DNA of 38,682 nt, taken from the sequence record OV696608. One strand, written 5' to 3'. The stretch is from Escherichia phage Gally. The position numbers are program-made. The first letter of the stretch is position 1, and each line of letters starts with the position of its first letter. Shown piece by piece: positions 30,001 through 33,000 of this stretch.

Positions 30001-33000
30001 TGAACTTGTAAAGCGTCTTTCAGCCATCAGAAAGCCCCGTGACGAGGTTAAACCTGTACGGTTAGGGGAAATCATCACTGACTACACTGACACGCTTGAC
30101 AGGCGTCTGAGGAACGGAGAAGAGTCAGATACCCTGAAGACCGGAATCGAAGAACTTGATGTCATCACCGGAGGGATGAACTCGGAAGACCTGGTGATTA
30201 TCGCTGCTCGTCCTGGTATGGGGAAAACCGAGCTGGCGCTGAAGATTGCCGAAGGCGTTGCAAGCCGCGTTATTCCTGGTTCTGACGTCCGGCGCGGAGT
30301 GTTGATTTTCTCGATGGAAATGAGCGCATTGCAGATCGCAGAGCGAAGCATTGCCAACGCCGGGAGGATGTCGGTTAGCGTACTGCGAAATCCTGCATCG
30401 ATGGATGACGAGGGCTGGGCACGTGTTGCTAAAGGCATGAGTCAGCTTGCAGATTTGGATGTATGGGTAGTCGATGCCTCGCGGTTATCGGTCGAAGAAA
30501 TTCGCTCAATCGCAGAACGGCACAAACAGGAAAATCCAAACCTGTCACTCATCATGGCAGATTATCTTGGCCTGATTGAGAAGCCGAAAGCAGACCGCAA
30601 CGACCTCGCAATTGCTCACATCTCCGGAAGCCTGAAGGCGATGGCGAAAGACCTGAAAACGCCTGTTATCTCCCTGAGTCAGCTTTCGCGCGATGTTGAG
30701 AAGCGACCAAACAAACGCCCGACAAACGCAGATTTGCGTGATTCAGGAAGCATTGAACAGGACGCAGACTCAATCATCATGCTCTATCGGGAAGCGGTAT
30801 ATGACGAGAACAGTAGCGCCGCGCCATTTGCTGAAATCATCGTGACGAAAAACCGTTTTGGCTCGCTTGGTACGGTTTACCAGCGGTTCTGTAACGGACA
30901 CTTTGTTGCATGTGACCAGGATGAAGCCAGACAGATTTGCACAGCATCAAATGCACCTGCTGCGCGTGGCAGACGATATGCACAAGGGGCTGACGTATGA
31001 CCATCTACATCACTGAGCTAATAACAGGGGCTATTTACACAGTAGCCCTTTTTTATTGGATTAAGAGCGAGGGGTAAGTACCGATGGTAAATGCATTTAT
31101 TTGTAGTTTATTTCTTGTCGCGATTTTTCATGGATTCCTTCTGATGATGAGTTTTGTTCTCTGGAATAATGGATATCGCATATTGGGAGTAGGTTTTGTT
31201 TTACGGTTTTCAGTTGTCTGCGCGTTGCTACCGATAATTATGGCGACTATCAAATATTATTGGTAACCCAAAAAATCATCGATGGAGAGTGATATGGACG
31301 AATCAAGAAAGAAGTTTGAGGAATACGTTGCCAAAAAATTGAAATTACCATTCGAGATGATAACCGAGGCAAGAAATGGTGATAGGTACTTCGCATTTTC
31401 AAGCATGGATATTCGTCACTCCTTAAATGAGTGGTGGACTTTATGGCAGGCATCGCGAGCAGCTATCGAGATTGAGCTGCAAAAGCCAAAGAAAGGCCCA
31501 CTTCCCGGTGATTATCACATTGGCTATGACTCAGGTGCAGAATCGCAATACGAAAGCGATGTAGAGGCTATCCGCGCCGCTGGAATCAAAGTGAAGGAGT
31601 GAGCATGAGTCGACGAAGTAGCTTTTTGGGGTTTGTAATATTCCTGTCCTGCACTGGTTACATCGTAATCTGGTCAATTTCGAACATTGACCGTGGCGGG
31701 GAATATCTCATTGTAATGTTCTTTCCTTTGTTTCTTGGGTGGTACGCCGCAAGGTTGCTGGAAGAATGGGGTTACAGGCATAAAAAATAAAGGAGTGTTC
31801 AGTGAAGCAAACAATATTCCTCCGAACTAAGCAACAACAGCAAGCCGCAATCAACGCCATCCTCGCAACACCACTCGATAAAGACAAGCCAGTCACCATC
31901 CGCATTATTGACTACAAGCGCAACCTTGACCAGAACGCAAAATTTCACGCGATGCTGGCGGATATCGCACGTCAGGTTCAATGGTGCGGCAAATGGTTAA
32001 AACCGGAACAATGGAAGGTTTTGTTGATCAGCGGTCATGCAGTGGCAACAAAACAGGAAGCTGATGTTTTGCCCGGGCTTGAAGGCGAATACGTCAACAT
32101 TCGCGAAAGCAGCGCGCAGATGAGTGTGAAGCGTATGGCAAGTCTTATCGAGTACACAACAGCCTGGGCTATTGGTCATGGTGTCAGATTTACCGACAGG
32201 AGGTACGAATGAGACGACAGCGACGAAGTTTCACCGACATCATCTGCGAAAACTGCAAATACCTTCCAACGAAACGCTCCAGAAATAAACGCAAGCCAAT
32301 CCCAAAAGAATCTGACGTAAAAACCTTCAACTACACGGCTCACCTGTGGGATATCCGGTGGCTAAGACATCGTGCGAGGAAATGACAATGCTTTTAATTC
32401 AACCTGGATTTGGCCTTAGCATCAAAAAAGGGCACATGTTTGGCGAGAAAGAGTCACAACGAAAAGTGGTGTCTATCCGGTTGCCATTTATCAGTATTTA
32501 TTGGCTAAACATGGAGGCAACAAATTATTGGTATACATGCGCCAGAGCAGCATTTAACGACCCTGACTGGTTTGTGAAAAACCACCACGCAGTTCGTCAG
32601 GCAAAGAGAAATGCCAATACGACATACATGAAGGCGTATCAAAAAGCATGGAAAGAACACCGCGATCGATACCAACAAGACATGGAAAAGCTTGAATCAG
32701 AAAACATGGAATTAAGACGAAAGCTCGGTGAAGCAAAACGAGACATTGATGCTTACAAGCGACTTTTTAATGGTGAAAGCCATGCTTAGTCCATCCCAAT
32801 CTCTTCAATACCAGAAAGAAAGCGTCGAGCGGGCTTTAACGTGCGCTAACTGCGGTCAGAAGCTGCATGTGCTGGAAGTTCACGTGTGTGAGCACTGCTG
32901 CGCAGAACTGATGAGCGATCCGAATAGCTCAATGTACGAGGAAGAAGACGATGAATGAGTTAATAAATGGCAATGCCATCAAAATGACAAGCATTGAAAT

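Follow-up and report, generated by a model that had tools for sequence, protein, structure and literature searches.

The genome of Escherichia phage Gally (38,682 nucleotides, sequence record OV696608; the whole of this stretch is called the window below) carries three small open reading frames (ORFs) on the + strand between its replicative helicase gene and ninB. ORF1 (31084–31266) is a putative gene for 60 amino acids with two hydrophobic segments, and has GAGGGG 9 nt before its ATG. ORF2 (31294–31602; GALLYPH_39, LF82_760, WP_000344549.1) encodes 102 amino acids, predicted to be soluble, and has GGAG 6 nt before an ATG that is also the start chosen by the Prokaryotic Genome Annotation Pipeline (PGAP). 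ORF3 (31605–31790) encodes 61 amino acids, again with two hydrophobic segments, and has AAGGAG 5 nt before its ATG. The upstream anchor of this interval is a DnaB-type replicative helicase gene (29624–31000, + strand; GALLYPH_38, LF82_112; Pfam DnaB_C, E 1.4e-77, and DnaB, E 4.6e-13; "replicative DNA helicase" in PGAP), and the downstream anchor is ninB (31802–32212, + strand; Pfam NinB, E 3.5e-55; phrog_72), which encodes an orf-family recombination mediator. Between the helicase gene and ORF1, a terminator scan located an intrinsic terminator equivalent to lambda tR2 (31026–31056, + strand), with a 10-bp stem, a 5-nt loop, and a T-run. The stem-loop folds at −17.2 kcal/mol (z −4.9), and none of 200 shuffled sequences was as stable. 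We find that the region from tR2 to ninB is a hypervariable accessory interval that opens the nin region and lies outside the core genes, and that its three ORFs appear to have become neighbors by recombination.

An earlier reading of this DNA, made from the sequence alone (hereafter the original prediction), had proposed a terminator after the helicase gene, three tightly packed ORFs of 60, 102, and 61 amino acids before ninB, and for the last of these two hydrophobic segments, an AAGGAG, and an ATG 3 nt after the ORF2 stop. All of these features are present, and each ORF has a credible ribosome-binding site. The window is the prophage Gally of the Crohn's-associated adherent-invasive E. coli strain LF82. 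An 831-base stretch around the trio is 100% identical to the LF82 chromosome (NC_011993.1, 1,011,329–1,012,159), the gene order and coordinates of the window agree with the gene table published for Gally (PMC9928086, S1 Table), and the window begins at the terminase genes, as does the deposited Gally phage genome. Gally has been described as a P22-like (Lederbergvirus-type) prophage (PMC9928086). Of the trio, ORF2 alone is annotated, both by PGAP and by the authors of the Gally study. The locus tags of LF82 in RefSeq skip RS04855 and RS04865 (the series runs RS04850, RS04860, RS04870), exactly at ORF1 and ORF3, which suggests that these two ORFs were called in earlier annotation rounds and later dropped.

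Comparison with related loci revealed the three ORFs in varied company. In O26 prophages, the order is helicase-DUF7301-ORF3-ORF1-ORF2'-ninB, with an ORF2' of 122 amino acids, and in strain SJC33 it is helicase-TM68-ORF2''-ORF3-ORF1-ORF2'-ninB, with an ORF2'' of 104 amino acids. Loci with a diverged ORF1 have helicase-TM68-P106-ORF1-ORF2 family-(P54)-ninB, and those with a diverged ORF3 have ORF3 immediately after the helicase gene. Four of the encoded proteins have no relationship to the trio: TM68 (68 amino acids, two hydrophobic segments, phrog_1165), P106 (106 amino acids, one N-terminal hydrophobic segment, phrog_5903), P54 (54 amino acids, phrog_1603), and DUF7301 (71 amino acids, soluble). 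Most carriers have the order ORF3-ORF1-ORF2', and the commonest forms over 112 loci are TM68-ORF2 family-ORF3-ninB and ORF1-ORF2 family-ninB. The order ORF1-ORF2-ORF3 occurs in 2 of 109 distinct ORF2-family contexts and in about three IMG/VR contigs, and the full LF82 arrangement is found in LF82 alone among 5,426 complete E. coli genomes. Over the same 109 contexts, ORF1 precedes at least seven types of N-terminal cassette of the ORF2 family, and ORF3 follows at least six types of C-terminal cassette. Judged by these gene orders, the members of the trio assort independently and are not a co-inherited three-gene system.

The ORF2 gene of LF82 is itself, according to its matches, a chimera of two alleles that crossed over in a conserved central block. 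Phage matches to the 5' half of ORF2 cover 31284–31466 (Stx phages and mEp213/235), those to the 3' half cover 31444–31830 (phiv205-1), and the two overlap only at 31444–31466, within the sequence that encodes the central block WQASRAAIE. From these matches and the family alignment, the crossover zone was placed at 31444–31470 (+ strand). To its left lies an allele of the N-terminal cassette, Na, that is elsewhere linked to ORF1, and to its right an allele of the C-terminal cassette, Ca, that is elsewhere linked to ORF3. Both parental ORF2 alleles are present side by side in strain SJC33.

A scar in the O26 and SJC33 prophages (3212–3235 of locus L003 and 3348–3371 of locus L002, compared with 31791–31812 and 31046–31083 of the window) bears on this history. 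There, the sequence after ORF3 consists of the opening 22 nt of the ninB unit (from its AGGAG ribosome-binding site through GTGAAGCAAAC), which are fused directly to the T-run of tR2 and then to ORF1. This junction of a ninB start with a tR2 T-run indicates that two alternative helicase-to-ninB intervals were concatenated in these prophages, and therefore that both ORFs occupy their native sites in LF82, ORF1 right behind tR2 and ORF3 immediately ahead of ninB. The mosaic module containing ORF1 starts at about 31046, inside the terminator T-run. The LF82 arrangement would thus consist of one piece with the tail of tR2, ORF1, and the 5' half of an ORF2-family gene, and of another with the 3' half of a different ORF2-family allele, ORF3, and the start of ninB, homologous recombination in the central block of the ORF2 family having linked the two. 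Because these pieces can be exchanged separately and are joined in the central block, the trio seem to be neighbors through recombination history. The original prediction suggested an accessory module and proposed conservation as a unit as its test. The accessory character was borne out by the hypervariable, mosaic interval outside the core genes, but a single module was not (2 of 109 contexts), and the genes are not conserved as a unit, with LF82 standing alone among the complete genomes and ORF2 being recombinant.

Lambda carries ren in this early-operon position, and the trio had accordingly been assigned to a "ren position." The location is better described as tR2-to-ninB, since relatives carry a Ren-like gene (phrog_142, E 3.5e-13; also phrog_1687, "MarR-like") upstream of the same kind of array. 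This coexistence argues that ren and the tR2-ninB array are separate slots and that ren has not been replaced. No match to Ren (phrog_142) was found for ORF1, ORF2, or ORF3 in the PHROG scan at E up to 1. The Ren-like genes sit between a DnaC/IstB-type loader gene and the array of TM68 and ORF2-family genes (3092–3382 of locus L011 and 694–984 of locus L201).

ORF2 is certainly a gene and, by profile matches, a member of the PF26207 / phrog_343 family. It matches phrog_343 with an E of 2.6e-29 over residues 1–106 of a 106-amino acid reading of the protein. Its codon score exceeds those of all 87 null ORFs. ORF2 is the only trio protein recognized by PHROGs; no match was found for any of the three in Pfam (E up to 1) or NCBIfam. 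PF26207 (Phage_phiTE_015) is assigned to each of the 120 listed among 302 ORF2-related clusters, including the 98%-identical cluster of ORF2 itself. This assignment comes from precomputed cluster annotation; the Pfam scan that we used was also blank for a relative with a precomputed PF26207 match, and the model is probably missing there. None of the trio had been recognized in the original prediction, which stands for ORF1 and ORF3 but not for ORF2. Likewise, a match to known nin-region proteins exists only for ORF2, and weakly so, as Sf6 gp48, 933W L0091, and ST64T Orf-86 are all hypothetical.

ORF2 is 97% identical to Sf6 gp48, and its family occurs in 180 phage records, among them Stx phages, P22-like Salmonella phages, and a Pseudomonas phage. 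Where these records list the gene as a feature, it is named only "hypothetical protein" or by a bare ORF name. The authors of the Gally study labeled ORF2 "similar to P22 EaD"; we rejected this label, as BLASTP against the EaD-annotated gene of Gally gave no alignment. We found no literature on PF26207, DUF7301, or 933W L0091, and no member of PF26207 has a known function or solved structure.

The ORF2 family is built from three conserved blocks, MDESRKxFEE, WxxWQASRAAIE, and IRAAGIKVKE, in which a 31-sequence alignment has the invariant columns D2, E3, S4, R5, F8, and E9; W48, W51, S54, R55, A57, I58, and E59; and I93, G97, K99, and K101. Between the blocks lie mutually unrelated cassettes, of at least five N-terminal and at least six C-terminal types, which recombine freely with one another and with flanking genes. 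The block motifs are retained at the protein level in the homologue from the GC-rich Pseudomonas phage U9, which argues that the blocks function in the protein and are not mere DNA linkers. In Rosenbergiella, the family gene is truncated just past the central block (two loci, L204 and L205). The AlphaFold2 model of ORF2 has a mean predicted local distance difference test score (pLDDT) of 76, with helices at residues 3–15, 20–28, 36–57, and 81–95, and the protein is hydrophilic on the Kyte-Doolittle scale; ORF2 is therefore modeled as soluble and mostly helical. No informative fold or sequence match to it was found in the PDB or in the BFVD viral structure library.

ORF3 is certainly a real gene, its substitution pattern indicating purifying selection, and it forms a tiny orphan family. 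The ratio of nonsynonymous to synonymous substitution rates (dN/dS) is 0.19, at a dS of ~1.0, against a 72%-identical homologue, with 47 nucleotide differences spread 17/8/22 over codon positions 1/2/3. With 19-residue Kyte-Doolittle windows above 1.6 as the criterion, ORF3 and ORF1 have two hydrophobic segments each, which in ORF3 span residues ~7–25 and 34–52. In both proteins the segments are of sufficient length to cross a membrane. The N-terminus of ORF3 is basic (MSRRSS), and its C-terminal tail is charged (EEWGYRHKK). The gap between the ORF2 stop and ORF3 is 2 nt, and the AAGGAG of ORF3 lies inside the last codons of ORF2, which encode the conserved VKE; this 2-nt spacing is invariable wherever ORF3 comes after an ORF2-family gene. 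ORF3 is represented by four protein clusters and three phage records. Its DNA occurs in 195 of the 5,426 complete E. coli genomes and is unannotated in all 10 sampled rows. An exhaustive profile search with ORF3 of 1.84 billion representatives gave one marginal match (E 9.5e-4, probably spurious), and a sequence-profile search of the PDB found no relative. Hydrophobicity and charge distribution predict that ORF3, and ORF1 if it is translated, are small inner-membrane proteins.

For ORF1, coding is plausible but unproven. The original prediction was right to call it hydrophobic (mean Kyte-Doolittle hydrophobicity 1.52), and its hydrophobic segments are two, as in ORF3 (residues ~4–26 and 33–56). 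It has three protein clusters among 5.8 billion, and 50,697 phage records gave no match to it by tblastn or at the DNA level. ORF1 DNA is present in 78 of the 5,426 complete E. coli genomes, with a PGAP annotation of "none" in 9 of 10 sampled rows. The frame is open, with no indels or stops, in all nine full-length DNA variants translated, and also in homologues of 88% and 80% identity called in public assemblies. Like the nine variants, the 80%-identical form keeps the ribosome-binding site, the ATG, and the exact length of 60 codons, and all 12 of its amino acid changes leave the segments hydrophobic. The dN/dS of ORF1 is 0.55–0.85 on 9–16 substitutions, with 3/6/7 changes at codon positions 1/2/3; as benchmarks, TM68 has a dN/dS of 0.40 and ninB of 0.08, besides the 0.19 of ORF3. 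Just 4.4% of single-base changes in ORF1 create a stop, and for this reason a frame that is open over ~30 substitutions is not significant. ORF1 and ORF3 fall inside the null distribution of the codon score, a weak measure that the genuine gene ninE also fails to exceed. A minus-strand sigma-70-like site (TTACCA-18-CATAAT, 31237–31266) at the 3' end of ORF1 would drive antisense transcription over ORF1; sigma-70-like sites are no more numerous in the region than in shuffled sequence, and this one may be due to chance.

Small membrane proteins recur next to the ORF2 family. In all loci that extend to the gene after ORF1, that gene belongs to the ORF2 family. The upstream neighbor in 73 distinct ORF2-seeded contexts is TM68 in 33, ORF1 in 17, a soluble 66-amino acid protein in 13, and a DUF7301-like protein in four. 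A small protein with two hydrophobic segments is thus directly upstream in 50 of 73 contexts (68%), a figure uncorrected for relatedness or for the background of small hydrophobic ORFs. In Sf6, gp47 is the 66-amino acid protein, and the membrane protein gp46 comes before it. Among distant family members, those of Pseudocitrobacter and Pseudomonas phage U9 have unrelated small membrane proteins (74 and 49 amino acids, respectively) directly upstream, and the family loci of Shimwellia, Buttiauxella, and Pantoea are without a small membrane neighbor. Common ancestry of ORF1, TM68, and ORF3 was considered on the basis of a BLASTP hint (E 0.03) and rejected, as the hhalign probability was <1%. TM68 resembles ORF1 in its slot after tR2 directly before an ORF2-family gene, its size class, and its predicted hairpin architecture. 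It differs from ORF1 and ORF3 in having no detectable homology to them, in being constrained, and in being included in PHROGs, whereas ORF1 and ORF3 are in no family library. A literature search on small membrane proteins encoded at this site in lambdoid phages gave nothing relevant.

The expression of the interval in LF82 was assessed from gene-level read counts in published transcriptomes (PMC9928086 tables), in which ORF2 is the one trio gene annotated. In stationary lysogeny broth (LB) culture, ORF2 is at prophage background (17, compared with a median of 15.6). In macrophages at 1 h, the two replicates have 65 and 63 reads on the 309 nt of ORF2, 14 and 22 on the 1,377 nt of the helicase gene, and 6 and 8 on the 411 nt of ninB (PMC9928086). 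This corresponds to a density of ~0.21 reads/nt for ORF2, compared with 0.010 over the helicase gene and 0.015 over ninB, or ~12–20 times either flank. Replicate read pairs for ORF2 agree (65 and 63; 40 and 43). At 6 h in macrophages compared with LB, ORF2 has a log2 fold change of 2.18 (q 3.7e-5), while both neighbors are unchanged (PMC9928086). Across macrophages and Dulbecco's modified Eagle medium (DMEM), the read density of ORF2 is 4–20 times that of the helicase gene and 2–14 times that of ninB.

These counts suggest that a local promoter downstream of tR2 serves the ORF2 region. This is the simplest reading, because read-through from pR cannot be ten-fold higher downstream unless stability differs greatly, and tR2 lies in between. 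A candidate promoter picked by eye (TTGCTA-17-TATCAA, 31225–31253) was rejected, as it is without the invariant final T. As ORF2 is not expressed in the unstressed lysogen, its LB background argues against a constitutive prophage exclusion function, at least for ORF2. The authors of the transcriptome study reported no autonomously expressed accessory genes ("morons") in Gally (PMC9928086), and the CRISPR interference (CRISPRi) paper on Gally does not mention the trio genes. Elsewhere in the window, the gene at 13843–14358 on the minus strand and the adjacent + strand gene (LF82_138 / LF82_139, beside mnt), both hypothetical, are in the published tables the most macrophage-induced Gally genes after the repressor, at log2 ~10–11 compared with ~6 in LB.

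The boundary of the interval contains one further frame, a hydrophobic, "NinA-like" mini-ORF of 26 codons (30997–31077, + strand) that overlaps the helicase stop (ATGA) and crosses the whole tR2 terminator. The HK97 and Sf6 records list the same ORF as a gene (gp56 in HK97; gp45 in Sf6, with 27 codons and the description "similar to phage 21 NinA"). We consider that what is conserved here is probably a DNA or RNA signal and not a protein, the annotation being a by-product of the boundary and terminator sequence. In the Sf6 record, the homologous site is annotated as tR2 within a "boundary sequence" (bsq6). No Rfam family matched in this region or anywhere else in the window, and no stable RNA structure or intrinsic terminator was found between ORF3 and ninB.

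Our preferred explanation, to which we give a probability of about 0.6 as a whole, is that the interval is a recombinant accessory patch whose genes act at the interface with the host. Its structural part, namely what the interval is and how it arose, is highly probable. The trio would be dispensable genes of the early operon, transcribed from pR with N antitermination carrying the transcripts through tR2, as inferred from the established organization of the lambdoid early-right operon, and a local promoter downstream of tR2 would add transcription under stress (macrophage, DMEM). ORF3, and ORF1 if translated, would be helical hairpins in the inner membrane with both termini in the cytoplasm (N-in/C-in), and ORF2 would be a cytoplasmic helical protein in which a three-block scaffold displays exchangeable cassettes. 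Our functional guess is tentative and draws on position and turnover only: each gene may act alone at the phage-host interface, in membrane-level takeover, exclusion, or anti-defence. Such independent action would fit the rapid turnover of the genes, and a looser two-gene relation, in which a small membrane protein is followed by an ORF2-family protein, is possible.

Several observations weigh against this explanation. That ORF1 and ORF3 are translated and reside in the membrane is a prediction. The local promoter is deduced from gene-level counts, for which differential RNA stability may be an alternative explanation, and no sigma-70 consensus was found on the + strand between tR2 and ORF2. 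Reads are low over ninB, yet no intrinsic terminator separates it from ORF3. The order of ORF1 and then an ORF2-family gene is constant, and all E. coli-type loci recovered with ORF3 also have an ORF2-family gene in the interval. Together with the small membrane protein upstream in 68% of ORF2-seeded contexts and in the Pseudocitrobacter and Pseudomonas relatives, this raises the point that the association of ORF1 and ORF3 with the ORF2 family could reflect functional coupling and not mere linkage.

Such coupling could take two forms, one with all three genes and one with pairs. A single three-gene module for counter-defence or superinfection exclusion, replacing lambda ren, would suit the early-operon position, the tight packing with good ribosome-binding sites, the two predicted membrane hairpins flanking a soluble protein, and a rapid turnover typical of arms-race genes. 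We regard it as very improbable, the comparative data having largely refuted it as a unit. Against it stand its 2 of 109 contexts and single complete genome, the chimeric ORF2, the Ren-like genes upstream of such arrays in relatives, the lack of a match to Ren or to any PADLOC model, the background level of ORF2 in the LB lysogen, and the report that Gally has no morons. A pairwise system, in which the ORF2-family protein works with the adjoining small membrane protein (ORF1 or TM68 upstream, ORF3 downstream), would have its contacts in the conserved blocks rather than in the cassettes; ORF2 would be, for example, the soluble partner or regulator of a membrane-active peptide, as in a toxin and antidote or an anchor and adaptor. 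It would account for ORF1 preceding the family in all sufficiently long loci, and before at least seven N-cassette types, for the 2-nt spacing of ORF3 and its ribosome-binding site within the conserved VKE codons, and for the 50 of 73 contexts with a two-segment neighbor. The unrelated membrane proteins in Pseudocitrobacter and Pseudomonas phage U9, and the missing homology among ORF1, TM68, and ORF3, would moreover mean a recurrence by architecture and not by descent. Yet many family members have no membrane neighbor (the 66-amino acid soluble protein in 13 of 73 contexts, the DUF7301-like protein in 4 of 73, and the Shimwellia, Buttiauxella, and Pantoea loci), ORF3 also directly follows DUF7301 or the helicase gene, phage early regions often contain small hydrophobic ORFs, and the contexts are not independent, as they derive mostly from E. 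coli prophages that are closely related. We think such pairs unlikely, and more unlikely still a fuller version in which PF26207 is a cassette-swapping adaptor that, with an interchangeable membrane effector, forms a two-part phage system with its own promoter responding to macrophage stress and acting in exclusion, anti-defence, or controlled membrane permeabilization.

A different alternative touches ORF1 alone and is compatible with the recombinant-patch explanation. The stretch 31057–31293 might be a non-coding leader supplying the downstream ORF2-family gene with promoter or regulatory signals, with the frame of ORF1 being incidental. The high dN/dS with its 3/6/7 distribution over codon positions, the codon score not beyond the null, and the lack of a PGAP call would be expected of such a leader, the open frame is not significant given how few changes create stops, an ORF2-family gene is invariably downstream, and the RNA sequencing (RNA-seq) data imply a transcription start between tR2 and ORF2. 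What makes a leader doubtful, if a possibility to be reckoned with, is that the 80%-identical variant retains a ribosome-binding site, an ATG, and 60 codons, that the translated full-length variants are free of indels and stops, that all 12 amino acid changes preserve segment hydrophobicity, and that the two-helix hairpin profile is like that of the genuine TM68 (dN/dS 0.40) of the same slot. Nor was a + strand promoter consensus found inside the stretch, or a match to Rfam.

Overall, the recombinant accessory patch is a case of ordinary nin-region mosaicism with a few modest leads, and nothing yet points to a new mechanism. One lead is an annotation gap, in that two small predicted membrane ORFs are systematically absent from RefSeq. 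Another is the build of PF26207, whose conserved blocks and free cassettes, together with a frequent membrane neighbor, make it a reasonable candidate for the host interface. The ORF2 region is also among the few Gally segments transcribed specifically inside macrophages, in a prophage reported to be free of morons. Were the two-part system true, ORF1 and ORF3 would be new, unannotated effector families in ~1–4% of E. coli genomes.

Comparison with known systems is by family, architecture, or position. The PF26207 members Sf6 gp48, 933W L0091, ST64T Orf-86, and the Pseudomonas phage D3 orf41-like proteins share with ORF2 both the conserved blocks and the slot between the replication genes and ninB, and LF82 ORF2 differs from them in its particular combination of Na and Ca cassettes, which appears to derive from the central-block crossover. 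None of the trio matched the defence models of PADLOC-DB v2 at E up to 1. ORF2 (102 amino acids, predicted soluble) followed by ORF3 (61 amino acids, two segments, basic tail) mimics GhoS-GhoT in size and order, an analogy of architecture only. There is no match to the GhoT model of Pfam, and the ORF2 model is helical, unlike the ferredoxin fold of GhoS. We rejected ORF3 as a GhoT/OrtT-type toxin, since it has no profile match and no obligate pairing with ORF2, following DUF7301 or the helicase gene as well. ORF3 also resembles class II (S21-type) holins in its predicted topology and charged C-terminus. It was rejected as a class II holin or pinholin, having no profile match and lying ~4 kb upstream of a separate lambda-family holin and lysin of Gally, outside the lysis cassette.

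T4 Imm, P22 SieA, and HK97 gp15 are small inner-membrane superinfection-exclusion proteins, and temperate phages normally express their exclusion proteins in the lysogen. The trio is unlike them in having no sequence or family match, and in that ORF2, the single gene measured, is at background in LB. As small phage-encoded membrane proteins, however, they are like the predicted ORF1 and ORF3, for which they suggest by analogy a plausible way of working. With lambda, the comparison differs between gene and region. The trio is unlike Ren, which it does not match and whose relatives coexist upstream of such arrays, whereas the ren/ninA-ninH region of lambda is like the Gally interval as a whole, a run of tightly packed and probably dispensable genes that is a classic mosaic with "boundary sequences."

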